Positions 27,049 to 44,505 of a stretch of DNA of 64,000 nt are shown one piece after another (position 1 is the stretch's first letter; the number at the start of each line of letters is the position of its first letter). Position numbers and translations under genes: made by a program. The DNA comes from an uncultured delta proteobacterium (lineage in GTDB: Bacteria > Desulfobacterota > Binatia > Binatales > Binataceae): NCBI GenBank assembly GCA_963724765.1, contig CAVRVY010000004.1, forward strand, positions 1,536,001-1,600,000, written 5' to 3'. The notes below the pieces were generated by a model. The model worked only from the letters and a program-made list of their open reading frames with translations. It had not been told where the DNA came from and did not search any database.

Positions 27049-27750
27049 CTCGCGCCGCATAACAGCCACTTTTTTTACCGCCCAAAACGTGAAGGACACC
27101 GAGATACTCCGGCAGGGAGAGAGATTAAGCTTTTCCTCCCCGTGGCGCCGGGGAGGAGATTCTCCGGTGTCCTTCAAATCACGTGAAGGCCGCGGGCACG
27201 CGGCAGTTTCGCTCAGTTCTTCAGAGAATCCGGAGATTTTGAGACTGGTTGGCGGATGACCCAGTCAGGGGCGAACTCCTCTCCCCGGCCTGCCAACCGG
27301 TTGACACTCTAGCTGCGGTTGGCAAACCCCTATTTCCGGACTTTCCGGACTCGCTTGCGCGCGCGCGATGGCGTGAATAGTCAATCCAACCAATATAAGC
27401 AAACATCGTTTGAATGTTGTCCGATGTTACCTGTGCGTCCCGAAAACTTTGTCCGGGATGACGGTCGGGTGGGCGTATGGTAATGAAGCGGCCGATGGTC
27501 GCGTTTCTGATCCAGCTGTTGTGTGGTATCCGGTCGCGGTTCACGGGGCGAGCGCGGCTTGAGGCCGAGAATCTCCTCCTGCGCCAACAACTGATAGTTC
27601 TAGGGCGGGAGTCCCCGACGCGCGTGAGACTGTGGAACATCGATCGCTTGCTGTTGGTATGGCTGTACCGACTGTACCCGTCTGTCTGGCACGTGCAGAA
27701 TACCCCACTCTCCGTGGGAGAATATCGATCTGAATTTGGGCCATGTGCCA

Positions 27751-28131
27751 TTAGGGTGCCTGCTGAATAGGGTGCCAATAGGTGCCATAGCGTTCACTGC
27801 GGGGTAGCCGCCGCCGCTTCCGGGGTAACGCCGCCTTTTTATTCGGCTCGGAATTACAGCGGATAAACTGGTGCACGGTCGATGGAACCGGCAACGTGAT
27901 CCCCGACCGGCGCACGATATCCTTTAAGTATTCCTGCGCGCGTTCGCGGGAGCCGTCAGCCGGGGCGCCGCCGCTCTGGCGTTCCACTTCTCCTTCGATC
28001 CAGATAAGCAGGTAGTTCGTAAGCTGCGTGCGCAGGTGCAGATATTTCAGGTTGGTCAGATCGCGAGGCATGACCCAGACCTGCTGAATCAGTTCATCGA
28101 TAAAATTCTCGAACGATCCCTGCTTAGCCAT
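27751..28131 (-). CDS. hypothetical protein
   Basis: 126-aa ORF starting 5 bp after the primase stop. Confidence 0.55.
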   Translation of the reverse strand: MAKQGSFENFIDELIQQVWVMPRDLTNLKYLHLRTQLTNYLLIWIEGEVERQSGGAPADGSRERAQEYLKDIVRRSGITLPVPSTVHQFIRCNSEPNKKAALPRKRRRLPRSERYGTYWHPIQQAP

Positions 28132-28136
28132 TGATT

Positions 28137-30428
28137 TTACAATTCCTCGGATTCGGCAACGGCACCGCGCCCGGTCTTTCTCACCGCGAGCCCTGTGATC
28201 CAGTTGCCGTTACGTTCGTGATCTTTGGCGAAGCCATGGGTCTCGACCAAGCGCTTTGAAAAGTCATTCTGGTTGCCGGGCCGCTCACCACATTCCACCG
28301 CCCAATTTTTGAAATTGTCGAATAGCACCGAGGTCAGCGTCCGCATAGCCGTCTCAGGGCGCCGATCCCGCTCGCAGTTATCATCGATCCAACGACCGAT
28401 CTGATCTTCGTCCGCCACGTATTCCTCAGTGGCGGCTATGACGACTTCAGGCGGGGCCAGCCCTTGGTCTAGCCATAACCGGCAACCGTCAATGGCCCAG
28501 CGCAGGATTCCCGGCCACTCTTTTTTCAATTGTTCTCGGAGATCGTTCTCGCGCTGAAGCACTTTAGTACCCGCCGCTAATTGGTCGTCGGGTTTGGTAG
28601 GATCGGAATAGAAGACCACTCCGAAGGGGACCAGATGCAGCCGCTTGCGAAGAGCCACGCCGCCGCCTTGGGGTAGCGCGGGCTTATGGTTGGAACTAAT
28701 CCAGAGTTTATGCGTGGGATTGTAGCGAAAGAAGTCCTGCCGCATAAACCGCGCGGTGATGGGATCGCCACCGGTCAACATTTTGACCTTGGCCAGTGCG
28801 AATTGGTGACCCGCTTCGGTCTCGGATGCCGTGGCGAAGCGAACGCCTTGCAGGGATGCCAACGCGGTTGGATGGCCCTCGCTCCGTTGCGCTATGAACA
28901 ATTCGCTCGGCGCCACGCTGGCGTAATCGCCCAGCAGATCGTAGATCGTATTGGTCAGAACGCCTTTGCCATTGCGCCCGACGCCACATAGGAAGGTTAG
29001 GTCTTCCTCGGTTACAACTCCGGTGAGTACGTAACCGATCTTACGCTGTAGGAAGGCGATCAGGGATTGGTCGCCATCCATGATTTGATCAAGGAATAGC
29101 AACCAGCGTGGACAATCCGCGTTAACGCACGGCCCTACCGCCGTGGCCTTGGTCACCAAATCTTCGGGCGTGGTAGGACGAATCGATCCCGTCTTAAGAT
29201 CGACCAACCCATCAGGCGTGTTCAATACCCATGGATTAGCATCGAACTGTTCCGGGCGCAGCGCTACCCGCCGATCAGTGAGGGCTAACGCGGATACGGC
29301 GGAGATCGTAGCGCGCGAGAGCAGGCGCTTGCGCTGCTTCGGATTGGCGTCCGCGATGGGCCGCATATAATCGCGCACCTGATCGGTCACCGCGTTGGTG
29401 CCATCGACTTCAAAACGGTAATCTTTGAAGGCATACCAGCCTCGGCCCAGTTGAGCGTGGCGCAGGTTACGACCGCGTTCCTCCACGAATCCCAATGCGA
29501 GCCCGTCGTCCGTAGCAGCGGCAGGGACGGCTCCGGGCGCTAGGAGCAGCAGTTCGCAGACCTGATCTACGACTGCCGGGCCATGCTCTTCGCCCAGCAG
29601 TTTGATCAGTCGAGTTCTGCCGGTGATGTTGCGGTCTTTATTCTTCAGCCGATCAAAAGTGTGCTTCACGTAATAGGCGAGGCGCTTTGAATGGTAGCCG
29701 CCCATCGCCTGAAAGTTGTGCAGGAAATACTCGACTGCCGCCGCATCCCAATGCCGGGCCAACATACCCATCAACGCCTGATTGGCGTCGTGCGCCTGCT
29801 TAGCCTTGGGCCAGAAGCGGTGGAGTAAGGTAGCCGCGCTGAATTGCCGCCACGCCCATTCAGTCTCGGCAGCAGGCGCTACGGTAAACTCCGGCACGTC
29901 GTTCCAAACGACTTCGGAGCCGTTCGGGTGCATGGAAGGAGGCGCCATGGATTGGCAACCGTTGCGCCGCAACTCCAGCAGCGTACTTTTGTCGTCTAAC
30001 GGATCAAGGCACACGATTTTCTTCAAATCGGTCGCGACATCGCCCGGTGCGCGGCGGTAGAGCCAATGAGTGATCTGACCGTCGTGACCCCAGCCGCGCG
30101 TCGGCTTCAACCATAAGCCCGCGTGTTGAATCGCCTCGGCGCAATCGAGATCAACGTCATCGAGCCCGCCCGAAATCGTGCCGAGCAGTATGCCGCGACC
30201 GGTGACGCCATCTTTGCGCCATGCCACATCTATGGCCGCCGAATCGCTTAGCTTCGCGTTGGGCCAGTCGGGGTAGTACGTGGCCTTGTCGGTCAGCGGA
30301 GTCGAATAGATACCGCGCTCGACGTCGGCCTTAACCGCTTCGATCAGTCGAGCGGTCAACGGCCCGTGCAACGGACGCGGTCGTATAGGAACAACGGGAT
30401 TGCCGTGTCCCAGTTTGCGCGCCTGCAT
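28137..30428 (-). CDS. P4-family/D5-like primase-helicase (prim-pol N-terminus + SF3 helicase)
   Basis: DDVDLD, QSMAPPSMHPNG, LNTPDGLVDLKTG, GVGRNGKG Walker A, KMLTGGDPITARFMRQDFF, SNHKP. Confidence 0.9.
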   Translation of the reverse strand: MQARKLGHGNPVVPIRPRPLHGPLTARLIEAVKADVERGIYSTPLTDKATYYPDWPNAKLSDSAAIDVAWRKDGVTGRGILLGTISGGLDDVDLDCAEAIQHAGLWLKPTRGWGHDGQITHWLYRRAPGDVATDLKKIVCLDPLDDKSTLLELRRNGCQSMAPPSMHPNGSEVVWNDVPEFTVAPAAETEWAWRQFSAATLLHRFWPKAKQAHDANQALMGMLARHWDAAAVEYFLHNFQAMGGYHSKRLAYYVKHTFDRLKNKDRNITGRTRLIKLLGEEHGPAVVDQVCELLLLAPGAVPAAATDDGLALGFVEERGRNLRHAQLGRGWYAFKDYRFEVDGTNAVTDQVRDYMRPIADANPKQRKRLLSRATISAVSALALTDRRVALRPEQFDANPWVLNTPDGLVDLKTGSIRPTTPEDLVTKATAVGPCVNADCPRWLLFLDQIMDGDQSLIAFLQRKIGYVLTGVVTEEDLTFLCGVGRNGKGVLTNTIYDLLGDYASVAPSELFIAQRSEGHPTALASLQGVRFATASETEAGHQFALAKVKMLTGGDPITARFMRQDFFRYNPTHKLWISSNHKPALPQGGGVALRKRLHLVPFGVVFYSDPTKPDDQLAAGTKVLQRENDLREQLKKEWPGILRWAIDGCRLWLDQGLAPPEVVIAATEEYVADEDQIGRWIDDNCERDRRPETAMRTLTSVLFDNFKNWAVECGERPGNQNDFSKRLVETHGFAKDHERNGNWITGLAVRKTGRGAVAESEEL

Positions 30429-30432
30429 GGGT

Positions 30433-30666
30433 TTACGCCTTACGCGCGGACTTCAGCGATTTGAAGTACGCCTGTACTTCGGCTCGTATCCAACAACGTG
30501 GACCGCGCGGGCCAATGATCAGCGTCACCGGGCGCGGGAAGTTGGCATCGACCTTCATTAACCGGCTCAGCGTATCCTCGGAGATCTCGAGCGCCTTACA
30601 AATGGTCCGCGAAGTAATCAGGCTCTCCAACTCCTGATCCATTAGTAACTGCTCTTGTGCGTTCAT
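30433..30666 (-). CDS. AlpA/excisionase-like HTH protein
   Basis: ICKALEISEDTLSRLMK...NFPRPV...RCWIRAEVQAY; GGAG RBS. Confidence 0.8.
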   Translation of the reverse strand: MNAQEQLLMDQELESLITSRTICKALEISEDTLSRLMKVDANFPRPVTLIIGPRGPRCWIRAEVQAYFKSLKSARKA

Positions 30667-30852
30667 TAGTCGTGCTCCTATAACGCCGAAGGCGCCCGGC
30701 TTCGAGACCACCTGTTGATGGTCAAGACTCCGGGCGCCTTCCTCACGCCTTTAAGTCTGGGTCCAACACCAGATTAGGCATATCCGGGGTACCTCCGCAA
30801 CTCTCCGGTAAAGCCTAACGACGGACCTATACCATGGGACACCGGGCAGCCC

Positions 30853-30965
30853 GTGACGGCACGTGACGGCTCCTCCCATATATACGAATGTCGATCTTAT
30901 ATTCTTAATATAAGAAAGTAAGATCGAGATCAGGCGATAAGAGAACTGCCGTCACGTGCCGTCAC
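30853..30965. repeat. nested inverted repeats, candidate replication origin
   Basis: Perfect 18-bp IR GTGACGGCACGTGACGGC / GCCGTCACGTGCCGTCAC around an AT-rich core containing TCGATCTTA/TAAGATCGA and TTCTTA/TAAGAA. Confidence 0.7.
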
Positions 30966-31827
30966 AACCGGGGAGCTAGATCGGAACTTCGGCCTTGCGG
31001 CCCGAACCCCGGCACACGCGCGTGCGCCACGGCCCGACACGGCACCATCGAAAGGCGATCTAACCCTCTAGCCGATTATAAAGAGCAACGGCAGCAGCCG
31101 AGCCGGGAAGGCACCCTAATGGCACAGGCGCCGATAGCAGATCGATGAACTCTTACGCAGCGTGAGCTGAAATGACGATCTAGCCTCGACTCGTATAGTC
31201 GATATGGCCCGGAAAGCCGCCAAACTTGGCCGCTTTTGCCGGTCTAGGTCGGGCGGATACTCGACCGAGGGCCGTAGCGCCCGCCGTGTGGCGCCGGTGC
31301 CCCGACAAATCGCTATGTCGCTCCTATCCAGGGCGGGGATCGCGGCCTACGCGGGCGGGCTACCCCGGCGGCCTCGCACCTCGGTCGGCGGCGGCGCCAC
31401 AGAACCGGGGGAATATATCGAGGGGGGAGGGGGTAGGCGGTGGCGTTCTTTTCTTTCCCGTTCAAACGGCGGGGATCGATGGCTTGTGATGACTTCCCTT
31501 GGCCCAGGGCACCGGGCATCCGGCACCAGGCATCGGTTCGGCGGCATAGGACCGGCGGCGCCCGCGCGCCACCAGATCCGTTTTCAAAAACCGTCCAGGC
31601 GCGCGCCCGGCAAAAATTTCCCGACCAAAAACTTGAACGGGGTCCAGGGCCGCCGGTTAGTTAATGCTCTTTGAACTTCGGGAGCATTACTAATAAAGGC
31701 CCCTTGACGACATAGTTATTTTCGAGCCATGGTAATAACTAACAGCAGCGCAGCGATCAGTGCCGGTGGTTCGGCAGCCAAAGACCACCGGCATTTTTGC
31801 GTTCTAAAGCTGTAGGCGGAGTATGTA

Positions 31828-32016
31828 ATGACTATTGGAATCCCATTAACGGAATTAGCCGAACAGCTAACCGTGCCACCTCGTATCGTACGGTCGTGGG
31901 TAGCGAAGGGGTACCTGACCGCCCGCCGGGGGAAGGGCGGTCGCATCTTTGTCTACCCGCGCAGTTATGCCCGGCTCCTTTCAGGAGGCTCGTATGCCGA
32001 AGCTCGTACAGCTTAA
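31828..32016 (+). CDS. small MerR/Xis-like HTH protein
   Basis: LTELAEQLTVPPRIVRSWVAKGYL...GGRIFV; GGAG RBS. Confidence 0.65.
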   Translation: MTIGIPLTELAEQLTVPPRIVRSWVAKGYLTARRGKGGRIFVYPRSYARLLSGGSYAEARTA

Positions 32017-32299
32017 GGATCACGTTGTGGAGCACCGGCGGTGCCGGAACTGCGGCTTCGATCAGGACGCTCCCGAACTAACGCCCGAGCAGATGATTGA
32101 GCTACTCCGGGCCTGGCAGGAAGCCCATCCACCTATCTATTGCTGGACGCGCGACGAATTGGATGGCCTACGGCGTGGATTGCTACCGGGCGATGTGTTC
32201 GTCAACTTTTTTTGCAATAGCGTCGTGTTCAAACGCGCGGGCGTTTCCATTACCTGGGAGCGGGGCGCGCGCAAATCTGAATCGAAGGAGATAGGGTAA
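31994..32299 (+). CDS. hypothetical protein with CxxC
   Basis: AGGAGG RBS; CRNC; stop overlaps the next ATG. Confidence 0.6.
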   Translation: MPKLVQLKDHVVEHRRCRNCGFDQDAPELTPEQMIELLRAWQEAHPPIYCWTRDELDGLRRGLLPGDVFVNFFCNSVVFKRAGVSITWERGARKSESKEIG

Positions 32300-33009
32300 T
32301 GAGTTTATTTTTCGGCAAAACAGATCCCGTGGATCAAGCAGATCGCGCCGCCCGCGCCGCCGCCGACAAGGAATCCCTGGCGAAGCAAACTGGGCTACGT
32401 AATGCGCTACCAGCGGAGCACGGTTCACGACTGGAGATGGCGGCGGGCGCCATTGAGGATGAAGTCTACAAGGGCCGCCTCGATCAATTCTCGATCCTCC
32501 GGGCGCGCGAACAAGCGCTGGGTATCCTGCAGCAGGCCGTCCACCGGAATCAAATGAGCGAGGACGTCGCTCTACAGGACTATCGTGAGGCTTGCCAGCT
32601 CGAATTGGAAAAATGGCTCGATGCGCCTACGGCTGCCGCCGCGCTATGCCGGGCGCGGGTTCGAGCCATCGTGCCCAAGCCGCGCGACCAGTTTACGTGG
32701 ACATGGGAATCCGCTGTGGCGCGGGCGCTCGGCTCCGGGGCGATCCCGCGCGATATCCCGCCGATAGCTATCGACACGCTGGGCGCGGAAGTGTTGAAGG
32801 AAGGAGACCAGATCCGCGCCTTCGATGAGCGCTACGGCGGGGTCTTCTACGTGGTAGGTACGGACAACAAAACCCGCGAGGTGAAGTACTCCTCGTTGCA
32901 GGAGTTTCGGCCACGAGGCGTGGTGATGAGCCCGGAAGGGATCGCGCGCTGGAACCTGCGCTTCAAACGTTCACATCAACCGGAGAGCCTTGAAGGCCCA
33001 GCCGTATAA
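32299..33009 (+). CDS. hypothetical protein
   Basis: 236-aa ORF, AAGGAG RBS, TAATG coupling. Confidence 0.65.
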   Translation: MSLFFGKTDPVDQADRAARAAADKESLAKQTGLRNALPAEHGSRLEMAAGAIEDEVYKGRLDQFSILRAREQALGILQQAVHRNQMSEDVALQDYREACQLELEKWLDAPTAAAALCRARVRAIVPKPRDQFTWTWESAVARALGSGAIPRDIPPIAIDTLGAEVLKEGDQIRAFDERYGGVFYVVGTDNKTREVKYSSLQEFRPRGVVMSPEGIARWNLRFKRSHQPESLEGPAV

Positions 33010-33296
33010 AGTTTACGCCGCTGGGCGCGGGTACGTGTGGTACCGGCAGGAGATCTCCGGTCGCGGTTTCAACCATTCCCGCGATGAATCAGAAGTGCCT
33101 GCGCCCGCATCAAGTGTTCGACAGGGGGCCGTGCCAGGGCGACCCTAGATAGTAGGTGCTTATGTAAAGGTTGGCGCCTGCTAACCCTGGCAAAAACTTT
33201 ATGGGATGTCGCACGATCAGAAGGTTCTCGCTGTGGCGGCGGCAGTGACGTTTAGGGAATCAGCGCTATCAACTTTGCAACTCGGAGAAGAAGAAC

Positions 33297-33959
33297 ATGG
33301 ACCATTTCGAAGCCGTAAGCCAAATGCTCGGCATCAACCGGGGCCAGCTACAATATCGCGCGGCTCATGCGCGCGGTACCGAAGACCGGAACACGGTCCG
33401 CGAGGTTCACGAAACTCCGGACATCACTGCTATCGCTGCGAACGTGGACTACTCGAACCGCCACGCCCTGGCGCAGAACATCGTGGACGTAGATGGCGAT
33501 GCCGAAGACGGTCGCGACTGCTCCGGCATCGCCCGTACCGTCAATGCCATGAAGGCGCCGAAGCTATCCGAGACCGGACTCGGCAACAAGGAGAAGGGCG
33601 ATCGCGAACCTGACGGCAATCCGGATAAGTCCAAGCAGGAAGGTGCTGACGGCCAGCCCGATATCATCAATGCCAAGGGTGCCGAAGAGGACGAGGATTG
33701 CGATGACGACGGCGAGGACATCGATGCCAAGGCCAAGGCGGTCAAGAAGGTTTTCATGCTCAGGCATGGATCGGAAGCTCGAATGATGTTGCGCGGGCAC
33801 GTTCGTGAAGGTGATTGGACTGACGAAGATCGGCCGTTGCGCAAGGCGCTGGAAAGCATGTGCGAGAACGACGCCGAGTGGGATGCCGGCCGGGCGGCAC
33901 ACGCACGCATGGGCGGCAGCGCGGGCGGCTACGACAACGTGACTCGCGTATTTGGTTGA
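33297..33959 (+). CDS. acidic hypothetical protein
   Basis: 220-aa ORF, GGAG RBS, Asp/Glu-rich tract. Confidence 0.65.
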   Translation: MDHFEAVSQMLGINRGQLQYRAAHARGTEDRNTVREVHETPDITAIAANVDYSNRHALAQNIVDVDGDAEDGRDCSGIARTVNAMKAPKLSETGLGNKEKGDREPDGNPDKSKQEGADGQPDIINAKGAEEDEDCDDDGEDIDAKAKAVKKVFMLRHGSEARMMLRGHVREGDWTDEDRPLRKALESMCENDAEWDAGRAAHARMGGSAGGYDNVTRVFG

Positions 33960-33983
33960 CCATTGTAGGCGCGTGGAATAAAC

Positions 33984-34250
33984 ATGAACGCCCCACTAAT
34001 ACTCCATGGCCGCGTTCGCCTGCACCGGGCCGAGGACGACCGGGATCAGCCTCAGACCTATCCGATAGATACCGCGCCGAACGACGTCATCTTCGCGTGT
34101 GTTCGATGTGGTTATGAAAGGACGGCGCTGCGTTGGCGGTTGCGCACCGAGAAGGTTCTGAAACGCTACAAAGGTCTCCGGCCAGACCCTCCGGCGCAAT
34201 GCCGTTGTGGCTCATACGACTTCCGCGAGGTGAAGCCTCGTGATGGATGA
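33984..34250 (+). CDS. hypothetical Zn-ribbon protein
   Basis: CVRC...CRCGS. Confidence 0.55.
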   Translation: MNAPLILHGRVRLHRAEDDRDQPQTYPIDTAPNDVIFACVRCGYERTALRWRLRTEKVLKRYKGLRPDPPAQCRCGSYDFREVKPRDG

Positions 34251-34350
34251 TCTTAGACGTTTCCGAACGATTCTGGCGGACTGGAGTAATTACCACGCTG
34301 ATTTTGTGCGAATGGTCGGTTCAAGGAAATCGCGAGGCTAGGGAAGGATA

Positions 34351-35130
34351 ATGCCCTCGCAGCCGCTACCGGGTGAAGAACTGGTCTCGGTACCCTGCCT
34401 GAACTGCGAGACCTTGATCGAGGTACCGGAGGGCAAGGTTCGCTACGGTTGGGCCAAGGATGAACTTGGCAAGCCCATCACGATTCCTAAGAATCGCTGC
34501 CGCGATTGCTCCCGCCTCCACGACAACCTCCGCCACGAACGAGATCAGGAATTCGAAACCCGCTTCAAAGAAGTAATCAAGACCAAAAACCGTGCGCGCG
34601 TAAAGAAGCGACTGGAGCAGTTTCCGGTGGTCGAGGAATTGGCCAAGCTGAGGGTAGGCCGCAACGGTGAGCCCGGTTTTGATCGGCTACTTGATCTCCT
34701 GGAAGGCGTGGCGGGCGGGCGCCACAACTATCGGCCCTTTACCACCAAGGCTATTACCCCTGGCATGCGTGCCGAGATCCAGGAGCACGATCCCTATTAC
34801 GATGGCCCGGTGCCGCGCGACTACCGGAAGGTCTGCGGCCAGCAACGTCGAGAGATGAAGGCCATGCGGGCGCGCGGGGAAATACCGATGGCTTCCATGT
34901 TTCCGCAGATCAACGTCTACCACCGGATGGGGGAACACGCCCGGATGGGATTGGACGGGGAGCAATGCCCGGAGTGCTGTGCCGCGCCGAAGAATACTGG
35001 GTTGTCGAAGAAGTACCGGCTCAAGCACGGGATCGACATGACGGCGCCCGCCGAGCCTCTGGTGGAGACCCGGCGGGCAGTTAAGACGTGGAACCGGCAT
35101 CCAGAACGCGATCTGGATCAGGAGGAATAG
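34351..35130 (+). CDS. hypothetical Cys-motif protein
   Basis: CLNC...CRDC and CPECC; GGAAGGA RBS. Confidence 0.6.
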   Translation: MPSQPLPGEELVSVPCLNCETLIEVPEGKVRYGWAKDELGKPITIPKNRCRDCSRLHDNLRHERDQEFETRFKEVIKTKNRARVKKRLEQFPVVEELAKLRVGRNGEPGFDRLLDLLEGVAGGRHNYRPFTTKAITPGMRAEIQEHDPYYDGPVPRDYRKVCGQQRREMKAMRARGEIPMASMFPQINVYHRMGEHARMGLDGEQCPECCAAPKNTGLSKKYRLKHGIDMTAPAEPLVETRRAVKTWNRHPERDLDQEE

Positions 35131-35390
35131 TTTACGGTGAGCCGCTGCATTCCGGCGCGGAACCGGCCCATTCGCCCACGTCGTCGGCGGCGCCTGCCGG
35201 GATATAACCCTCATTGCCGTTGTGCAGGCGGATCAGCATCCGACCGTCGGCCCGGATCGCGATAATGTGGACCAGACGCCCGGCATGGAGGGTCTGGAAA
35301 ACTTCACCCGTCCTATAGCTAAGGTTCACGTCAGCGTTGAGGCGGCCCAGCAGATTGACCGCGCGTGGGCCGGCACTGTCCAAACCAAAT

Positions 35391-35846
35391 CTATGAAGTC
35401 GGAACCTTGGCAACCCAATTGCCAAAATCCTTTTCAGTGCGTTTCCCGACTTGGGCAACGGCACCGCCCTTGAAGAAAGAGCTTCCAAAGATGTGGATGT
35501 AACCGCCGAAGTCGGACGGCAGATAAAAGTTCCCATACTTGAGCATTGCCACCCTTTCTTTTCCCAAGCAGCCATAGAAGTACCCGAACTCGAAGAGCAC
35601 GTTCAGGTTGGGTGTCCACACCGTTTTGCCCCGAACAGTAGCCTCAGCCTCCGGTGAGAAGAGCAAGATCGCACCGTTCACCTTAGCTCGTATATTGTCC
35701 AATTCTTCAAGCAAAGTTTTTCCCAGTGTAAAGGCGTCCCACCACGGGAGCAACTCGATAGTTGGACCTTTGAACTTTTCTACAACTGCTTTGGCCTGTG
35801 ATTTTGCGGCAGCAGATGAGCCGATAAAGAGGGTCGCTTTGGGCAT
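35391..35846 (-). CDS. standalone TIR-like predicted nucleotide-binding protein (CAP12/Pycsar-type TIR)
   Basis: LFIGSS, PNLNVLFEFGYFYGCLGKERV (catalytic Glu retained), LPSDFGG. Confidence 0.8.
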   Translation of the reverse strand: MPKATLFIGSSAAAKSQAKAVVEKFKGPTIELLPWWDAFTLGKTLLEELDNIRAKVNGAILLFSPEAEATVRGKTVWTPNLNVLFEFGYFYGCLGKERVAMLKYGNFYLPSDFGGYIHIFGSSFFKGGAVAQVGKRTEKDFGNWVAKVPTS

Positions 35847-35983
35847 GCCTTAGCATATCTCAAAAGGCAAGCGTCGCACCCGCTCTGGGGGATTGATCGC
35901 GGTGAAATAGAGCAACATAACGTTCTTTATGACTGGACCGGATGGGCGTGTCCATCCGGCCCTTGTGATCGGCCCGGCAGGTG

Positions 35984-37428
35984 CTATTCCGGCGGCTTTT
36001 CGCCCGCGCCCTCATCTACGGGTTGCTCATAGTGCCCTACCTCGTTGCCCCAGCTTTTCCATTCTCCGCCACGGAGACGGCGGGCGAATAGCTCCAGCTT
36101 CCGCACCTTCGGATACATCATCTCGATGATCTCATAGGCGCGGTCCGGCTTTGCGCTATTCAGTTCGGACCAAGGCTCACCCTCGAACACGGATCGCGGC
36201 TTCTCGTACTGCAAAGGTGAAATTGAGCCCCGCGTACCGATCAACAGCACCTCGTGCTGCCAGAAGGCGAAGCTACCGATCACCGGGCGGGGCTTCTTCC
36301 AGATGAAATGACTATTGTACGCAAAGCCCCAGCCCGCCATTACGTTCATCGCGGCGGGCAGCATCTTTACCGTGGCCCACAGGAAAAGCGCGCAGTCGTC
36401 GGTCAGGTGCTCGTCAAGGTTGAGATCTTCTCTAAGAGCAATGATCTCCTCGGCGTCCATGGTCGGGAACGTATTCTCGGCGGCAGCACTGCTATGCTCA
36501 TTGCCGTATTTCCACGGAGGGTCGGCGTACACCACGGCGAACTTGCCCCAATCCTCGCCGGGCAACGGCGTGCCCTGCTCGATGAGATTGCCGAATCTTT
36601 GTTCACGTTTGGCTTCGCGCAGGAGATGCCGAATATAACCGGCTGTGCGGTCCTTCCTCTCGAACGCCGTCACAACAGCGTCGGGGCGTTCGGCAAGTGC
36701 CAAGACTTCCTCGTGGGTAAGGTGGATCTTCTCATTCAGGATGTCGTCTCTCAGTGCACCGCCAGCGACCTTGATCTTACCGATCTGATCAACGGCTTGG
36801 CTGAACGCGCCACGGCGTTCGACGGTGCTGTCGCTGACGCTGTTTTCACGACCGAGCCTCTGGGCGAGAGTTTCGAACTTCTCCCCATTTTGGGAGAGGT
36901 TAGATCGGTGCGCGTCCCTTGCGCCTTCTGTTCGTTGTACTCTTGGCCGAGGCAGTATTTCGACCACGTGCGATTGTGGTTGCGGCGGCCTCTCTGATTG
37001 TCGCGAATCCATTTTTTTGCGTGTTCCCACGATTCAAATGGCTGCTCTTGGAAAACCGGCTTGAGCCATCCGTGCTCGCGTTCCTTCAGCCAGATATCGA
37101 GTCGGTGATGGCCATCGGCTAAGAAGCGCTGTCCATCTGGCAGCACTCCTATCGTCAGCGGATGACTGATACGGCGGTCGGTGCGGATCAGGTTCAGGAG
37201 GTTGGCCTTCTCTTCAGGAGTCAGCGGTCGGAGAAGGCGTCGAGCCTTCCAATAGATATCAAACGCGACGTCTACGAGCATTTTCCACTCGACGTCAGCG
37301 ATTCCGACATACTCAGTGCCTAGGCGCTTCCCGTCAGAAACCCGGTCGAGGTATTCGGGCCGCTCCTTCGTCGAACGGTACGTCTGTCCCGGTGCAGGCC
37401 GAGCCTTGCCTTCATCGCGCGTCATCAT
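35984..37428 (-). pseudogene. ParB-like + MT-A70 adenine methyltransferase fusion with one frameshift near 36890
   Basis: N-part PLTPEE...LADGHHR...NQRGRRN; C-part VYADPPW, LFLWAT, SAKPD, LELFAR, WGNE. Confidence 0.8.
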
Positions 37429-37457
37429 CCGCCTCCGCTCTGATGAGCAGCGCCACC

Positions 37458-37922: not shown

Positions 37923-38405
37923 GTACTGCTCTGCTCCCCTTGGCCCGGCGCATACTAAGGGTTGGCCTGATCAGATCAGGATTTGCGAGCACATCCCCTG
38001 CGTCCCGAACGCCAAAGCAGTTTAACAATGCCTTAGAGCGCTCACAAGAGGCTAGATGCCTTTAGAGATAATCTATAGAGGTCTGGGTCAGCGCAGCGGC
38101 GGCATCAGCATGATTGATGATGCTACGCCCGGCCTGCATGGTCATCGCTCCTTGGGCTCGTCAGGTGTACAGGACGCGGGTTCGCGGCCGAAAAAAGCAG
38201 GGATCCTCCAAGATTCTCAGTACTCCCCCGTGGGCGACCTCAGTGTCTCGGAGGGGCGGCATGGATGTCTGGGATCGGGGGTCGCTAGCGTCCTACGAAG
38301 AAGAGCAACGTTAACCACACAACGTAGGGCAGACGGAGGAGAGTCAATACGCAAAGTAATAACCGGCCCCGGACAGGCGTGTCTCTCCCTTTTCGGTGCC
38401 GTCAA

Positions 38406-38434
38406 TTGAATGCCTGACTTTCACGCCGTATTCT
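38406..38434 (+). promoter_or_regulatory. sigma-70-like promoter for the HTH gene and tRNA-like RNA
   Basis: TTGAAT-N17-TATTCT, 26 bp before ATG 38461. Confidence 0.55.
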
Positions 38435-38460
38435 TTTGGTCGGAGGCACGAAAACTACCG

Positions 38461-38937
38461 ATGAGTAACAAGGCAACCGCACAGAGTTCGACCACCACGC
38501 TCCGAGTGAATGAAGCGAAATGGTCGAAGGCGCTCATGGCGGGCGGCTGGACCGTCATGCCCAATGTCATCATCGAGCGGCAAAAGGTGCTCGGTCTCGA
38601 CGCAGTCGATATCAACATCTTGATGCACTTGGCGCTCTACTGGTGGACACCCGACAACAAGCCTCATCCCTCGAAAAATACGATTGCGGCCGCGGTCGGC
38701 GTTCATCCTCGTACGGTGCAGCGCCGCATTGCTGAAATGGAAAAGCACGGGCTGATCCGACGTGAGGAACGGCGCATACGTGGGCAGGGCAGTAAGACCA
38801 ACCTCTACCATTTCGACGGGCTCATTAAGGAAGCGACGCCCTATGCGGCAGAAAAGGTACAGGAAGCCGCGAAGCGCGCGGCCGAGCGCAAGGCCACGGC
38901 CGCCCGTAAGGGGAGGCCACGGTTGCGCCTCGTTTAG
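38461..38937 (+). CDS. winged-HTH protein (HTH_36 / replication-initiator N-terminal-like)
   Basis: PHPSKNTIAAAVGVHPRTVQRRIAEMEKHGLIRR...TNLY. Confidence 0.8.
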   Translation: MSNKATAQSSTTTLRVNEAKWSKALMAGGWTVMPNVIIERQKVLGLDAVDINILMHLALYWWTPDNKPHPSKNTIAAAVGVHPRTVQRRIAEMEKHGLIRREERRIRGQGSKTNLYHFDGLIKEATPYAAEKVQEAAKRAAERKATAARKGRPRLRLV

Positions 38938-38958
38938 GACGAGTAGCGGGATTAGAAT

Positions 38959-39065
38959 CGCGGTGTAGCTCAGGCGGATAGAGCACCTCGCTTTCTTCAT
39001 ACGACGTAGGACGACAAACCACAGTATGGGCGAGGAGGTCGCAGGTTCAAGTCCTGCCACCGCCA
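38959..39065 (+). ncRNA. tRNA-Met-like RNA with a 40-nt structured insert in place of the 7-nt anticodon loop
   Basis: Acceptor CGCGGTG/CACCGCC (1:72 mismatch), D arm GCTC/GAGC, anticodon stem CCTCG/CGAGG, variable AGGTC, T arm GCAGG-TTCAAGT-CCTGC, 3' ACC(T). Confidence 0.8.
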
Positions 39066-39348
39066 CCTTTGAAGGGAAAGATGGGCTAAACTGAGGTTCC
39101 CCTGTTGCCCAGCGCCCACGCCCGAGCCGATTCTTGTCCGACACTTTCTGCCAAACCGGATCGGATACCGAAGGAAAAACGCGGGAACTTTGGCTATTGA
39201 TGGCCTGTGCCTCGTTTTGTACCTCGCATAGCTGAGAGCGCCAGAGAGAAAATCCCTCACTGAAGCAGCCGGATAGACCGGTTGCACCGGAGTAAAAATC
39301 CGGCAGCAATAGCCCATTTGCCGTGGAACGGCAGAGGTGGGCGGAGGG

Positions 39349-40848
39349 ATGAAGCGGGTGGAACTATACGCGCAGGTTCGACGAGCGGTTTACGTGGAGG
39401 GGCTGAGTCGGCGGGAAGCAGCACGGCGCTTTGGGATCGACCCGCGGACGGTGGCGAAGATGCTGGCGTTCTCGGTGCCGCCTGGTTATCGACGGAGCCG
39501 GCCGCCGGCGCGGCCCAAGCTGGATCCGTTTGTCGGGATTATCGACCGGATCTTGGAAGAAGATAAGTTACGCCCAGCCAAGCAGCAGCACACGGCGAAA
39601 CGGATTTTCGAGCGGCTGCGCGATGAGCATGGGTATGACGGCGGGATCTCGATCGTAAGGGCTTACGTACACGAGCATCGCCAGCGGCTGCGCGAGATGT
39701 TCGTGCCACTGCACCATGATCCTGGACACGCGCAAGTCGACTTCGGTGAAGCGCTCGCGGTAATCGCAGGTGAGGAGTGCAAGATCCACTTCTTCGCGAT
39801 GGACTTGCCGCACAGCGATGCTTGTTTGGTGCAGGCCTATCCGGCGGAGAGCACCGAGGCCTTCTGCGAAGGTCACAACGTCAGCTTCGAGTTCTTTGGC
39901 GGAGTGCCGCGTTCGATCCTCTACGACAACACCAAGCTGGCGGTGGCGCGCATACTCGGAGATGGCACCCGTAAGCGCACCAAGGTCTTCAGTGAGCTGC
40001 AGTCCCACTCTCTGTTCGCCGATCGCTTCGGGCGGCCGGGCAAGGGTAACGATAAGGGCAAGGTCGAGGGGTTGGTCGGCTATGCGCGGCGCAACTTCAT
40101 GGTGCCGATCCCGCGCGCACTCAGCTTCGCTGAGCTAAATGAGCAGTTGCTGGAGTGCTGCCGCCGTCGTTTGAAGGATCGGCTACGTGGTCATGATGAC
40201 ACCATCGGCGAGCGGCTGGTGAAGGACCGTGAGGCTCTCCTGCCGCTGCCGCCCGCACCCTATGATGCGTGCGAAAAGAGGCCCGCCTGGGTCAGCTCGT
40301 TGTCGCTGGTGCGCTACCGCGGCAACAACTACTCAGTGCCAAGCGCATACGGTCACCGCGAGGTGCTGGTCCGAGGTTACGTCCACGAAGTTGTGATCGC
40401 CTGTGCAACCGAGGAGATCGCCCGGCACGCTCGTTCCTACGAGCGCGAGGACTTCGTGTTCAACCCACTGCACTACCTGGCCCTGCTGGAGCGGAAGATC
40501 GGCGCGCTGGACCAGGCCGCGCCGCTGGTCGGCTGGGAACTACCTGAAGAGTTCGCAACGCTGCGCCGGCTGCTCGAAGCGCGCCTGCGCAAGCCCGGTA
40601 AGCGGGAGTTCGTTCAGGTCCTGCGCTTGCTCGAGGTGTTCGGTCTCGAAGACGTGGTCGCAGGAGTTCGAGAAGCGATCGATCGCGGAGTGATTAGCTT
40701 CGACGCGGTCAAGCATCTCGTGCTGTGCCGCATCGAACGGCGCCCACCGCGACTCGACCTGAAGATCTATCCCTATCTGCCACAGGCGACTGTGAGCACC
40801 ACCTCGGCCCGATCCTACCTGAGCCTGATGGCGGGAGCAGGTTCATGA
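39349..40848 (+). CDS. istA: IS21 transposase IstA
   Basis: AQVDFGEA, LYDNTK, NDKGKVEGLVGYARRN. Confidence 0.95.
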   Translation: MKRVELYAQVRRAVYVEGLSRREAARRFGIDPRTVAKMLAFSVPPGYRRSRPPARPKLDPFVGIIDRILEEDKLRPAKQQHTAKRIFERLRDEHGYDGGISIVRAYVHEHRQRLREMFVPLHHDPGHAQVDFGEALAVIAGEECKIHFFAMDLPHSDACLVQAYPAESTEAFCEGHNVSFEFFGGVPRSILYDNTKLAVARILGDGTRKRTKVFSELQSHSLFADRFGRPGKGNDKGKVEGLVGYARRNFMVPIPRALSFAELNEQLLECCRRRLKDRLRGHDDTIGERLVKDREALLPLPPAPYDACEKRPAWVSSLSLVRYRGNNYSVPSAYGHREVLVRGYVHEVVIACATEEIARHARSYEREDFVFNPLHYLALLERKIGALDQAAPLVGWELPEEFATLRRLLEARLRKPGKREFVQVLRLLEVFGLEDVVAGVREAIDRGVISFDAVKHLVLCRIERRPPRLDLKIYPYLPQATVSTTSARSYLSLMAGAGS

Positions 40849-41621
40849 GCGATACGCCCCAGGTTCTGCTCACCCATTACTTGAAAACACTCAGATTGCC
40901 CACCTTTTTGCGCGAGTATGACAAGTTGGCGCGCCAATGCGCCGGCGAGGATGTCGACTATCCTCGCTACCTGTTGCGCCTGGCCGAGCTGGAGATGATC
41001 GAACGGGAACGCCGGACCATCGAGCGGCGAATCAAGGAAGCCAGGTTCCCGGCGGTCAAAAGTCTCGATAGCTTCGAATTCGCAGCGCTCCCCTCGCTCA
41101 ACAAGACGCTAGTGCTGGAACTGGCCCGCTCGGAGTATATCGCGCGCCGCGAGAACATCATCGCGGTCGGCAACAGTGGCACCGGCAAGACTCATGTGGC
41201 TCTCGGGCTAGGTCTGGCCGCCTGCCAGAAGGGTCTCGCGGTCGGCTTCACCACCGCTGCCGCTTTGGTCAACGAGCTGCATGAAGCGCATGATGAGAAG
41301 CGTCTGCTGCGCCTCCAACGTCAACTCGCCGGCTACAAGCTTCTGATCGTGGATGAACTCGGCTACGTCCCGCTCTCCCCAACTGGTGCAGAGTTACTGT
41401 TCGAAGTCTTCAGCCAGCGCTACGAGCGCGGCTCGATCATCGTTACCAGCAATCTGCCGTTCGATGAGTGGACCAGCGTGTTCGGCTCCGAGCGCTTAAC
41501 CGGCGCACTGCTTGATCGTCTTACCCACCACGTTCACATCCTCGAGATGAACGGTGACAGCTTCAGGCTCAAACACAGCAAGCGCCGCATCAGTGACGAT
41601 CAACCGCGAGAATCCGGCTAA
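40845..41621 (+). CDS. istB: IS21 AAA+ helper ATPase IstB
   Basis: GNSGTGKTH, LIVDELGY, TSNLPF, LLDRLTHH. Confidence 0.95.
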   Translation: MSDTPQVLLTHYLKTLRLPTFLREYDKLARQCAGEDVDYPRYLLRLAELEMIERERRTIERRIKEARFPAVKSLDSFEFAALPSLNKTLVLELARSEYIARRENIIAVGNSGTGKTHVALGLGLAACQKGLAVGFTTAAALVNELHEAHDEKRLLRLQRQLAGYKLLIVDELGYVPLSPTGAELLFEVFSQRYERGSIIVTSNLPFDEWTSVFGSERLTGALLDRLTHHVHILEMNGDSFRLKHSKRRISDDQPRESG

Positions 41622-41795
41622 CACCACTAACTCCAACCCACAAAGCTAGATCTTTTCGACACAGTAGCGAGGGGGTGATCCCCCTCGCGCTCCCCCTGCC
41701 AGACGTCAACCTACCTGCCATCGGCTTATCCAAATGATGGACTTTTGCTCTGGCGCGCTGATGTACTTTCACTCCGGTGTTGACAGGAGCGGAAG

Positions 41796-42233
41796 ATGGA
41801 ATCGTACCCGGAGGGACCAATCAAAGGCTCGGAGATGGAACGCCAAATGAATCTGGCCTGGGATAGCATCGATGCGAAGTCCGCCAAGCACATCGATGAC
41901 CTGCTCAAGCCAAAGTCCCAGGAGGAGATCGGCGCCCTGTTCCATAGCCTTTATGACATTCAAGGCGAAATGGGACCGAAACACGACCGCTGCTTTAGGG
42001 ATGCCATCGTGTACCTGATCGTGGGCACCGCCATGCACTCCCTATTGTTGGCCTTTCCTTGTGTCCATTTCCCAGGGAGCGTCCATCGCGTATTCGATCC
42101 TAAACTCTCCGAGGCCGAACGCAAGTCGGTCTGGGAAACCCACGAGAAGGCCGAGGAGCGGGATGCCGAGGCCCACGCCCGGAAACGCCGCAACCAGGCC
42201 AAACGCGAGCGCCGAGAAGCGGCGCGAGCATAA
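41796..42233 (+). CDS. hypothetical protein (possibly 5'-truncated by IS21)
   Basis: 145-aa ORF starting 10 bp after the IS21 end. Confidence 0.5.
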   Translation: MESYPEGPIKGSEMERQMNLAWDSIDAKSAKHIDDLLKPKSQEEIGALFHSLYDIQGEMGPKHDRCFRDAIVYLIVGTAMHSLLLAFPCVHFPGSVHRVFDPKLSEAERKSVWETHEKAEERDAEAHARKRRNQAKRERREAARA

Positions 42234-42429
42234 CCCGTCCGCCCTGGGCCGCCGCTCGGTCGATAACCGGGCGGCGGCTCTCTTGTGCCAAATAGGTGCC
42301 AAATTAACCCGATCCGGGCGGGGTAGCGCCTATTAGCACCGATTACACGTTTATTCAGTTCCTCTTAGAGCCCCTAAGCGTTAATGGGGTTTCGCGTTAG
42401 CGCCTAGTACCCCGGTTTAGCGCCAAGAT

Positions 42430-43274
42430 CGACTGTACCCGTCGCTCCTGGACGCGATCACCATCGTCCAGCCGGAGACCGTGATCCGCTGGCACCGACG
42501 CGGTTTCCGCGCCTATTGGCGCTGGAAGTCCCGCCACGTCGGCGGCCGTCCAAGGATCGATTGCGAGATGCGAGCGCTGATCCGGCGGGGATGAGCCGCG
42601 AGAACCCGCTGTGGGGCGCACCGCGGATCCACGGCGAATTGTTGATGCTTGGAATCGAGGTCGCTGAATCAACCGTCGGCAGGTATATGGTCTGGCGCCG
42701 CCGACCACCGTCCCAAGGTTGGAAGACTTTCCTGCGCAATCACGTTGGCGGCATCGCTTCGCTGGATCTGTTCGTCGTACCCACGTCTCGTTCAAGCTGC
42801 TGTACGGCTTGGTGATCCTGCGTCACGCCCGCAGGCGACTAGTCGCGATCAGCGTCACTACCAATCCGACTGCCGAGTGGATCGCTGGACAGGTGACTGA
42901 CGCTTTCCCCTGGGACGAAGCGCCGCGTCACCTGATTCGCGACCGCGACGGGGGCCTTCGGCCCAGCCTACACCCATCGCATTCGGGCAATGGGGATCCG
43001 CGATCATCCGACCGCGCCGCGTTCACCGTGGCAGAACGGCCACGTCGAGCGCCTCATCGGCTCGATCCGGCGCGAAAGCCTCGATCACTTGGTCGTGTTC
43101 GACGAAGCGCAGTTGCGTCGCGTTCTGAAGAATTACGCTTCTTATTACAATCGGGTCCGAACGCATCTCTCATTGGACAAGAATGCGCCGGATTTTCGAC
43201 GCCCACAGAAGCTCGGCCCCATCGCAGCCATTTCAATTCTGGGTGGGCTGCACCACCAATATGTAAGGGTTTAG
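42430..43274 (+). pseudogene. 3' part of integrase-core transposase, frameshifted
   Basis: MSRENPLWGAPRIHGELL, LIRDRDG, SPWQNGHVERLIGSIRRE, GGLHHQY spread over several frames. Confidence 0.88.

Positions 43275-43369: not shown

Positions 43370-44505
<1,136 letters not shown>

Follow-up and report, generated by a model that had tools for sequence, protein, structure and literature searches.

A probably decayed, integrase-less integrative element with anticodon-loop-type attachment sites in an IS481-like gene of a Binataceae genome

The locus raises the question of how an insert bounded by short direct repeats, in which no integrase gene is recognisable, entered the chromosome and whether it can still move. 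The window analysed here is a stretch of 64,000 nucleotides from an uncultured delta proteobacterium of the Binataceae; positions are those of the window unless a contig name precedes them. The original prediction was made from the letters of this window and described a replicative element with tyrosine-recombinase-style att sites in a transposase gene, which was either mobilised in trans or had lost its integrase.

The borders of the insert were determined with the 14-mer CGACTGTACCCGTC, which occurs twice in the window, at 27669-27682 and 42430-42443, and bounds as a direct repeat a 14.7 kb insert. In genome coordinates the whole element occupies C4:1563683-1578429. Its flanks are the two parts of a single rve-type, IS481-like IS, at about 27430-27682 and 42444-43274.

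27430..27682, plus strand: 5' part of the target IS481-like IS, ending in the left repeat copy (BLAST to 14 paralogs; translation)
27669..27682, no strand: attL identity block CGAC-TGTACCC-GTC, with the presumed 7-bp overlap TGTACCC at 27673-27679
42430..42443, no strand: attR identity block, second copy of the 14-mer
42444..43274, plus strand: 3' part of the target IS481-like element with the rve_3 domain and several frameshifts

By translation, the 5' part encodes the N-terminal 70 or so codons of the transposase. The target copy is itself a pseudogene with several frameshifts, which had been missed in the original prediction, and an intact paralog of 344 aa scored 95 bits on the NCBIfam IS481 model, under the cut-off of 224. 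The BLAST matches of the left and the right flank overlapped by exactly 14 bp in all 14 paralogs that span the site, showing that the insertion was precise. Each of these paralogs holds the 14-bp sequence once, so the predicted repeat with the interior GAC-TGTACCC-GTC and the predicted empty site CGAC-N7-GTCG were both confirmed. The empty site reads CGAC-TGTACCC-GTCG, a dyad with a 7-nt spacer. Set beside an identity-block criterion of at least 7 bp, the block measures 14 bp at both ends and occurs once in the empty site.

The exact 14-mer has six occurrences in the 5.4 Mb genome, namely attL, attR and four empty IS copies, and the remaining 10 paralogs deviate from it at 1-4 positions. The four perfect empty sites are unoccupied and the element is single copy, as is its interior with the exception of a nested IS21; genome BLAST and the flanks revealed neither a second copy nor a tandem partner at the insertion site. 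The target is not a tRNA or tmRNA gene, and the IS gene is not restored by the element. Compared by eye, the IS site and the anticodon stem-loop of tRNA-Val match in 10 of 15 bases, and both consist of a dyad and a 7-nt spacer. The attL junction in the IS was found in only 1 of 165 genomes of the host's bacterial family. The IS target had been called unusual, and it does depart from the tRNA sites of the relatives described below; a PICI inside an IS110 transposase gene, reported in the cited part of PMC10111431, is a precedent.

IS copies with an end near this position were seen in two other genomes. In G129 a copy ends, and in G046 a copy starts, 1-4 nt from the left edge of the repeat. The missing halves were not found in these genomes, which are 88-89% complete, and the truncated copies have chromosomal neighbour genes and no integrase. 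We treat this as an unexplained coincidence.

The element was also followed in four metagenome runs. Its contigs, one of them extending across attL, were at about 2-4x depth and showed no differences in the pieces listed. Joints that skip the element occurred in all four runs and are indistinguishable from uninterrupted IS paralogs. A circle junction was not among the joints listed, at a depth too shallow to show or exclude excised forms.

The gene content between the repeats was as follows.

27751..28131, minus strand: orf126, no assigned function; the arm repeats supply its last 12 codons
28137..30428, minus strand: primase-helicase of 763 aa in a single open frame, with Prim-Pol, D5_N, DUF5906 and the P4-family primase C-terminal region
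30433..30711, minus strand: AlpA/Xis-like putative DNA-binding protein of 92 aa (weak matches only)
30853..30965, no strand: large palindrome upstream of the alpA-primase operon, AT-rich at its centre and with GACGGCAC repeats
31949..35130, plus strand: five ORFs (116, 236, 220, 88 and 259 aa) annotated without function, some with CxxC pairs
35391..35846, minus strand: stand-alone TIR domain protein of 151 aa, CAP12/Pycsar-effector type (PF10137, 70 bits; PADLOC TIR effector models)
35984..37030, minus strand: MT-A70 family DNA methyltransferase
38410..38937, plus strand: HTH_36 protein of 175 aa, resembling the N-terminal parts of replication initiators
38959..39065, plus strand: tRNA-like gene in which 40 nt replace the 7-nt anticodon loop (Rfam tRNA, 52.2 bits)
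39233..41785, plus strand: nested IS21 with IstA and IstB, 2553 bp, one of eight genome copies
41796..42233, plus strand: orf145, no assigned function, starting 11 nt past the IS21 end

A backbone of primase and AlpA had been predicted. The primase belongs to the P4 family, with 261 bits on TIGR01613 (cut-off 108.7) in addition to Prim-Pol and D5_N, whereas the AlpA-like protein encoded upstream of it matched below threshold (27 bits on NCBIfam Xis_Gifsy_1 with a cut-off of 60; PHROG excisionase families at E of about 1e-5 to 1e-3). The palindrome at 30853..30965 may serve as an origin or operator. No family match was obtained for the ORFs in 31949..35130, nor for an ORF at 36751-37428 on the minus strand that overlaps the MT-A70 gene. 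The tRNA-like gene was not found by ARAGORN; its nearest counterpart among the genome's own tRNAs is tRNA-Val(tac), and a region 79% identical to its own occurs in G133. IstA and IstB of the IS21 scored 282 and 281 bits on NCBIfam models, and the eight genome copies share identical TG...CA ends. A target-site duplication of 4-8 bp is present in three of the eight and absent at the nested copy; reciprocal flank pairs indicating IS21-IS21 recombination were not found among the genome copies.

The absence of integrase, capsid, terminase and relaxase genes had been noted originally and withstood the searches. Capsid, terminase and relaxase families were absent from the element ORFs in Pfam, NCBIfam and PHROGs, as was any family for helper-capsid hijacking or packaging. 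Of the 16 genome matches of a six-frame search with Phage_integrase (PF00589) at E<=1, none lay in the element, where tblastn with nine integrase queries reached a best E of 0.29 and a six-frame Resolvase search had no match. The candidate remnant orf126 was rejected (BLASTP E 0.63). A large serine recombinase at 47463-49229, 5 kb to the right, lies outside the repeats as one of 10 genome copies and was not considered the agent. Since no integrase remnant is visible in the element, its loss, as opposed to an original absence, is what we infer and not what we saw, and so is the route of the loss.

The ends of the element were then described by their repeats.

27706..27761, no strand: left arm of a 56-nt, 75% inverted repeat with its partner at 31109-31164
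27745..27786, plus strand: left arm cluster, four GTGCC(A) sites forming two doubled motifs
31109..31164, no strand: left arm segment repeated internally in inverted orientation; two GGCAC sites
42285..42300, plus strand: right arm cluster, doubled motif GTGCCAAATAGGTGCC, 133 bp ahead of the presumed overlap
42324..42424, plus strand: TAGCGCC three times and TAGCACC once, between the right arm cluster and the core

The predicted GTGCC(A) clusters inside both ends were recovered, with four repeats on the left (27745, 27756, 27772, 27782) and two on the right (42285, 42296), all on the plus strand. The TAGC(G/A)CC copies had been described as inverted. They are present and their reverse complement does resemble GGTGCCA, but relative to each other they are direct. 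The inverted-repeat pair at 27706-27761 and 31109-31164 brackets the alpA-primase-orf126 module. Clusters of at least three GTGCCA within 60 bp exist only twice in the genome, one being the left end of the element. The 16-mer at 27745-27760 is identical to a 16-mer located 49 bp past tRNA-Val in a remnant at C4:914954. A GTGCCA cluster at C1:596050 has no integrase nearby and, by eye, only a tRNA-like fragment.

The pattern GGTGCCA-N3-5-GGTGCCA had 135 matches in 63 of the 165 family genomes, against 20 for the reversed control pattern, and GTGCCAAATAGGTGCC was the most frequent variant across the family. Among 30 fetched motif loci of 3 kb each, tRNA-Glu lay within 150 bp in 6 and an integrase match was present in 6; both were found in 3. 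The GTGCC(A) repeats are therefore a signature common to a family of integrative elements, and the GGTGCCA doublets are probably bound by an integrase.

Seven relatives were fetched, chosen for paired motif matches or for a motif near a primase match. The tyrosine integrase looks intact in six of them (G026, G028, G091, G043, G139 and G044) and is broken in G117. Four target tRNA-Glu, two tRNA-Val and one, G044, a non-tRNA site of the form stem-7nt-stem. The crossover of the relatives is at the 7-nt anticodon loop of tRNA-Val or tRNA-Glu; G117 and G028 have a 45-bp direct repeat that starts at the first base of the anticodon loop, and by analogy with such repeats TGTACCC is taken as the probable 7-bp overlap of the element. 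The distance from the distal motif to the overlap is 133 bp here, 132 bp in the host's own tRNA-Val remnant, 134 bp in G028 and 120 bp in G117. From the overlap to the first proximal motif it is 65 bp here, 21 bp less than the 86 bp of each of the three tRNA-Val cases. The arm clusters inside both ends are thus homologous to those of integrase-bearing relatives and positioned as in them, and the att geometry of a tyrosine integrase, as originally proposed, was substantiated by doubled GTGCC motifs at matching crossover distances in the tRNA-Val and tRNA-Glu relatives.

It had also been suggested that relatives might have an integrase where the IS21 now sits. This applies to G028 and G139, with the integrase at the equivalent end, but not to the two primase-bearing relatives G117 and G043, which have it at the opposite end. 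Besides the same arms, the latter two have an HTH_17 gene and/or a PrimPol-D5 primase with 37-41% identity to that of the element. The G028 element encodes a DUF3854 protein and, like the 1.9 kb tRNA-Val remnant at C4:914.8-916.8 kb, showed no P4-type primase. The best match of the primase in the 165 family genomes, the genome contigs and the metagenome contigs was about 45% identical and covered the C-terminal half only, and the other 14 element proteins had no homolog in 178 fetched primase loci; synteny claims about the former place of the integrase are weak for this reason. A DNA search with 30700-39232 in the 165 genomes had only two matches, a degenerate remnant of 1 kb (G133) and one of 377 bp (G129).

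An integrase flanked by the same arm repeats, for which a search of the host genome had been proposed, was found in an element of about 20 kb on contig C3 (C3:686.7-706.6 kb). This C3 element has a tRNA-like gene followed by GGTGCCAAATTGGTGCCA, the tyrosine integrase and an HTH_17 gene, and at its far end the doubled motif recurs with partial tRNA repeats. The integrase looks intact (PF00589, 105 bits), and its N-terminal 30 or so residues have the pattern W..D(Y/F).DA.G.R.R, as in the integrases of G028 and G044. With the clade of the tRNA-Val and tRNA-Glu relatives it shares only about 24% identity, and the stem-loop of its own core is a different one; the element's primase had no tblastn match in the C3 element. 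The cognate clade itself, with 48-68% identity among the relatives, has no match above 33% in the host genome.

The insert is probably a decayed, integrase-less member of a family of anticodon-loop tyrosine-integrase elements that landed in a look-alike site of an IS. That family is common in the host's bacterial family. Its elements have doubled GGTGCCA arm motifs inside each of the two ends, and they recombine over a 7-nt overlap with a short dyad around it, which is usually the anticodon stem-loop of tRNA-Val or tRNA-Glu. The member described here has a P4/PICI-like backbone of AlpA-like gene, PrimPol-D5 primase and candidate origin, with a cargo including the TIR protein and the MT-A70 methylase. 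Site-specific recombination of an attP with an attB, which had 14 bp in common, would have brought it into one IS481-like copy at CGAC-TGTACCC-GTCG, a presumed mimic of the tRNA-Val anticodon stem-loop. With its integrase now absent and none of the cognate clade elsewhere in the genome, it should move only if a suitable integrase is supplied. The matching spacing of the arm motifs, the tRNA-Val-like IS site and the integrase-bearing relatives together support the tyrosine-recombinase reading. On the attP side the arms occur without the 3' half of tRNA-Val, so the element is not simply a strayed tRNA-Val element. Signs of rearrangement are the IS21 without target duplication and the inverted replication module. 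The proximal spacing, unlike that of the relatives (65 versus 86 bp), counts against this reading. Of the two possibilities named in the original prediction, simple decay now leads because the relatives carry an integrase beside one arm cluster, and an integrase-less design is less favoured. As relatives normally have an integrase of their own and the copy here has none, the element is most likely stranded and CIME-like.

That the element lacks an integrase by design, as a hitchhiker with functional att sites and arm motifs that a related element's integrase would move in trans, the IS copies being its landing pads, we consider unlikely. The C3 element, which has an intact-looking integrase with the shared N-terminal pattern and doubled motifs, could be the donor, or else an incoming relative could. 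The att sites, primase and AlpA-like gene of the element are all intact, and mobilisation of CIME type in cis or trans is documented in the cited part of PMC5704250. The divergence and different core of the C3 integrase speak against it, as do the four unused perfect sites, the lack of a second copy or tandem partner, the single attL junction among 165 genomes and the integrase or its remains in all seven fetched relatives. Quite unlikely, too, is that the lineage was retargeted from tRNA-Val to the IS481-like stem-loop and persists as a replication-competent, integrase-less rider on the integrases of arm-sharing relatives; it is just as doubtful that it would in effect be a satellite of integrative elements, with the IS copies as many interchangeable landing sites.

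The GTGCC(A) repeats might instead be iterons for the P4-type primase, similar to ori and crr, their closeness to the ends being incidental. The alpha protein of phage P4 binds repeated octamers at ori and at the distant crr. Here the left cluster is directly downstream of the primase operon, and a third cluster (31109-31130) adjoins the AT-rich palindrome upstream of it, a position that fits replication or regulation no less than an integrase function. This is nevertheless improbable, because the same doublets recur at fixed crossover distances where no P4-type primase was found (G028, the 1.9 kb remnant and the C3 element) and because tRNA-Glu adjoins 6 of 30 motif loci. A recombinase of undescribed type, encoded by one of the unannotated ORFs (116-259 aa), is very unlikely as the maker of the 14-bp repeat. 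Nine ORFs are without a family match in Pfam, NCBIfam, PHROGs and PADLOC and, except o37458, lack homologs both in the 178 primase loci and in the rest of the genome. Yet a known integrase family fully accounts for the end architecture, the ESM Atlas results for the 259-aa and 236-aa proteins were uninformative, and a full recombinase motif set was not seen in them by eye. A target-site duplication by a transposase or a casposase-like enzyme is the most remote of these explanations. A length of 14 bp is within the range of casposon duplications, and by eye the element ends form a weak imperfect inverted repeat. Against this, the repeats of the relatives are tRNA-derived and 45 bp long, as site-specific recombination predicts, and the sole internal DDE transposase belongs to the independent IS21. 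Six-frame searches with Cas1 (PF01867, E<=1) had no match in the element and only one in the genome, elsewhere and with E 0.7; in the lack of a Cas1 casposase we rejected the casposon reading.

As the evidence stands, the locus is a case of ordinary decay of a known kind of element. A repeat motif that seemed idiosyncratic in one window is the signature of a family present in 63 of 165 related genomes; motif, tRNA fragment and integrase now allow that family to be mapped. The locus shows how an att site of the anticodon-loop type can land in a look-alike stem-loop of an IS gene and how such elements become stranded without an integrase, and its value is mainly that of a worked example. If trans-mobilisation were true, it would extend the idea of CIMEs and satellites to elements that parasitise other integrative elements.

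The element shares with the P4-like and PICI-type satellites of Gram-negative bacteria a P4-family primase, preceded here by a gene with sub-threshold AlpA-type matches, and the integration into a gene of another mobile element without a replacement sequence (cited part of PMC10111431). In the helper-embedded PICIs (HE-PICIs) of the same source, a doubled motif lies 81 bp to one side of the attP centre and 132 bp to the other, comparable to the co-oriented doubled motif at the likewise unequal distances of about 65-92 and 133 bp here. Unlike these satellites, the element has no integrase, no recognisable capsid-redirecting or packaging genes and no identified helper, and it differs from them in motif sequence and host lineage. 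Islander lists 2083 islands with an anticodon-centred attP, and its islands at the anticodon-loop 'A' subsite have the layout of the element's relatives, with a repeat from the anticodon loop and a restored tRNA 3' half (cited part of PMC4383910). The core of the element corresponds to these in its dyad and 7-nt spacer, but its target is an IS481-like gene and not tDNA, the identity block is only 14 bp, and without an integrase gene it is outside the Islander criteria as given there. CIMEs (cis-mobilizable elements) are by definition decayed ICEs and IMEs, usually in tandem with a functional partner (cited part of PMC5704250); the element resembles them in keeping attL and attR without integration and transfer genes and differs in having no tandem partner and a replication module that is still intact. 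Closest are the host's own tRNA-Val remnant and G117. Both are located in tRNA-Val with a tRNA-derived repeat, unlike the element, and in G117, which has both an HTH_17 gene and a PrimPol-D5 primase, the broken integrase is placed after the proximal arm and before the HTH_17 gene, while the primase module faces the opposite way. With both, the element has in common the identical 16-mer arm motif in the same orientation and TAGCGCC past the distal doublet.

The 14-mer CGACTGTACCCGTC was found at both 27669-27682 (attL) and 42430-42443 (attR). Outside these repeats lies a single copy of an rve-type insertion sequence of about 1.08 kb, which is divided as follows.

~27430-27682: left part of the target insertion sequence, encoding the first ~70 transposase residues
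42444-43274: right part, encoding the remaining transposase including the rve_3 domain

An intact paralog (L194, 344 aa) had IS481 as its top NCBIfam match with 95 bits, which is under the cut-off of 224, and the target is therefore named IS481-like. Several frameshifts make the interrupted copy a pseudogene, and a different contig carries a paralog of 99.8% identity with the same frameshifts. A whole-genome BLAST of both flanks returned 14 paralogs spanning the insertion point. The left and right alignments overlapped by exactly 14 bp in every one of them, so the insertion was precise with 14 bp on each side, and the originally predicted insertion into a transposase gene with a 14-bp direct repeat was confirmed. 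The exact 14-mer occurs six times in the 5.4 Mb genome, at attL, attR and four empty copies of the insertion sequence, and the remaining ten paralogs are 1-4 positions off. The interior of the insert is single copy, except for an IS21 of 2553 bp (39233-41785) with eight genomic copies.

Many insertion sequences were observed in the neighbourhood, and an IS110-family transposase gene (window 43370-44329, minus strand) starts about 100 bp past the IS481-like right end. A gene for a large serine recombinase of 588 aa, preceded by a DUF2924 gene, is located 5 kb right of the element (47463-49620, minus strand). Resolvase-domain matches of 124-143 bits at 10 places in the genome, mostly open frames of ~310-620 aa, suggest a multicopy serine-recombinase element. 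Truncated IS481-like copies in two other genomes, G129:C5:94382 (L195:18383) and G046:C6:440445 (L196:18946), break 1-4 nt from the left edge of the 14-bp site, and in G046 a perfect hairpin adjoins the break. Neither an element nor an integrase was found beside them, nor were the missing halves.

On the minus strand, with transcription running to the left end, the insert encodes in turn an AlpA/Xis-like protein of 92 aa with only sub-threshold family matches, a primase-helicase of 763 aa and orf126. The primase-helicase has Prim-Pol, D5_N, DUF5906 and the P4-family primase C-terminal region (261 bits, cut-off 108.7). No function is assigned to orf126, whose last 12 codons are read from the arm repeats. 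No convincing ORF was seen in the 1.2 kb upstream of the AlpA-primase genes, where a large palindrome, AT-rich at its centre, occupies 30853-30965. Next follow five plus-strand ORFs without assigned function, a stand-alone TIR domain protein and an MT-A70 methylase, then two unassigned ORFs, an HTH_36 protein resembling replication initiators, a tRNA-like gene, the IS21 and orf145. As predicted, a six-frame PF00589 search (E<=1) placed none of its 16 genome matches inside the element, and capsid, terminase and relaxase families were likewise absent from the ORF scans of the insert. Resolvase and Cas1 were not found in it either.

The tRNA-like gene (window 38959-39065, plus strand; L191:10950-11154) scored 52 bits with the Rfam tRNA model and was not called by ARAGORN. 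In it, the 7-nt anticodon loop is replaced by 40 nt that by eye can be drawn as an extended hairpin. Its arms most resemble tRNA-Val(tac) of the same genome, a tRNA that the element family usually targets. G133 has a remnant of 79% identity (orf117', frameshifted HTH_36, tRNA-like gene) that keeps the expansion, and the homology stops exactly at the tRNA-like 3' end. Among the accessory genes, relatives were found for one alone, a 154-aa ORF without assigned function (37458-37922, minus strand): it has a homolog of 68% identity in G129:C14 (L192:7848-8223) and a paralog of 32% identity at C4:439276 of this genome.

The arm repeats are located inside the element ends.

27745, 27756, 27772 and 27782, plus strand: the four left-end GTGCC(A) sites
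42285 and 42296, plus strand: the two right-end GTGCC(A) sites

A paired-site scan of the whole genome returned two more loci, at C4:914.8-916.8 kb and C3:686.7-706.6 kb. The first is a 1.9 kb remnant at tRNA-Val(tac) (C4:914832-916830; L198:9833-11815) with arm doublets at both ends and no integrase. It has a 16-mer identical to 27745-27760 at 49 bp past the tRNA; a second doublet follows ~1.7 kb beyond the first and, 132 bp later, a partial tRNA-Val copy that starts in the anticodon stem-loop and is damaged (3-nt deletion, 90% identity). The second, with approximate boundaries (C3:686738-706620; L197, L199), has a tRNA-like gene (Rfam 35 bits, 12-nt insert in the D-loop, UUU anticodon), a doublet, a tyrosine integrase that looks intact, and an HTH_17 gene. 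Its far end, ~20 kb away, again has doublets, along with several partial tRNA repeats. Four TTGGCAC sites within 45 bp at C1:596050-596095 (L100:10050-10095), with a tRNA 3' fragment by eye ~110 bp off and no integrase within 9 kb, may be a further orphan att end of the element family.

Among the 165 genomes of the family, which include the unpublished G018 and G164, the pattern GGTGCCA-N3-5-GGTGCCA had 135 matches in 63 genomes, and the reversed control pattern had 20. No conclusion depends on the two unpublished genomes by themselves. The commonest variant is that of the element's right end. In the 30 motif loci returned (3 kb each), tRNA-Glu was within 150 bp of the motif in six, an integrase match was present in six and both in three; the other loci may be distal ends. 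Seven relatives were selected by motif matches paired 7-54 kb apart or near a primase match. Six have a tyrosine integrase, identified by Pfam in G028 (116 bits) and G044 (108 bits) and by near-full-length tblastn alignments in G026, G091, G043 and G139, and in G117 it is broken into two pieces. Their targets are tRNA-Glu(ttc) in three cases, tRNA-Glu(ctc) in one, tRNA-Val(tac) in two and, in G044, a non-tRNA site with a repeat of stem, 7-nt spacer and stem. The repeat that flanks the element is 45 bp long in G117 and G028 and runs from the first base of the anticodon loop to the CCA end; this start corresponds to the anticodon-centred subsite reported in PMC4383910 for islands that target tRNA genes.

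Spacing between arm repeats and the presumed 7-nt overlap
Last distal GTGCC to overlap: element 133 bp; own tRNA-Val remnant 132 bp; G028 134 bp; G117 120 bp
Overlap to first proximal GTGCC: element 65 bp; own tRNA-Val remnant 86 bp; G028 86 bp; G117 86 bp

The proximal spacing of the element differs from the tRNA-Val cases by 21 bp. In G117 the order is tRNA-Val, arm, broken integrase, HTH_17 and PrimPol-D5 primase, and G043 is alike at tRNA-Glu. Since both primases are also 37-41% identical to that of the element, its backbone belongs to the arm-motif family. The arms, spacing and integrases of the relatives support reading the ends as tyrosine-recombinase sites.

In its dyad and 7-nt spacer, the empty site CGAC-TGTACCC-GTCG is built like the anticodon stem-loop of tRNA-Val (CGGC-CTTACAA-GCCG), and 10 of 15 positions match by eye. 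The attP matches the insertion sequence over 14 bp. Since no tRNA-Val 3' half is present next to the core, the element is not just one of the tRNA-Val type that used a secondary site. In a search with the attL junction (28 nt, up to 3 mismatches), this genome alone of the 165 had a match, and none of 38 fetched motif loci contained IS481-like sequence. The insertion sequence is therefore a target observed once.

With nine integrase queries from the relatives, tblastn had a best E of 0.29 in 27000-43000. The integrases of the relatives form a clade with 48-68% mutual identity. The C3 integrase is ~24% identical to this clade and the best other match in the genome 30-33%, so the cognate clade is missing from the genome, which is 97% complete. 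In G028 and G139 the integrase is beside the distal arms, the end where the element now has IS21, and in G117 and G043 beside the proximal arms. Signs of rearrangement in the element are the IS21 without target duplication, the alpA-primase-orf126 module, reversed relative to G117 and G043 and flanked by an inverted repeat (56 nt, 75%) with an arm doublet in it, and the end of orf126 in the arm repeats. Three of the eight near-identical genomic IS21 copies have a target duplication; the lack of one in the other five, with no reciprocal flank pairs among the eight, suggests repeated IS21-associated deletions or rearrangements.

Taken together, the element is probably a decayed, integrase-less member of an anticodon-loop-type family with a P4/PICI-like backbone, stranded in an IS481-like pseudogene at a mimic of the tRNA-Val stem-loop. 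Its ancestor would have been an integrative element of this family that inserted at the mimic, and its integrase would since have been lost. Mobilisation in trans by design is unlikely. The C3 integrase shares the N-terminal W..D(Y/F).DA.G.R.R pattern with the clade and may recognise an identical arm motif, but the stem-loop of its own core is a different one. Four perfect empty sites and a single element copy fit an element that is not moving. Contigs of the element were found at low depth in four metagenome runs, each of a separate study, on peat, freshwater sediment and soil; the listed pieces do not differ from it and one contig crosses attL. Joints skipping the element occurred in all four runs and can be explained by the many uninterrupted paralogs of the insertion sequence.

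A role of the GTGCC repeats as primase iterons is slightly less probable than such mobilisation; it concerns the function of the repeats and is compatible with the stranded-element reading. A hidden recombinase is very improbable, and for the 14-bp repeat an origin as a target-site duplication is hardly credible.

The element has published parallels. According to PMC10111431, a PICI within an IS110 transposase gene has already been reported, and satellites are likewise on record that use genes of other mobile elements as targets and do not restore them. The same source reports a motif that occurs doubled on both sides of the attP centre, at distances of 81 and 132 bp, and leaves undecided whether its binder is the integrase arm domain or AlpA. 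The element has the same geometry and the same ambiguity over the binder.
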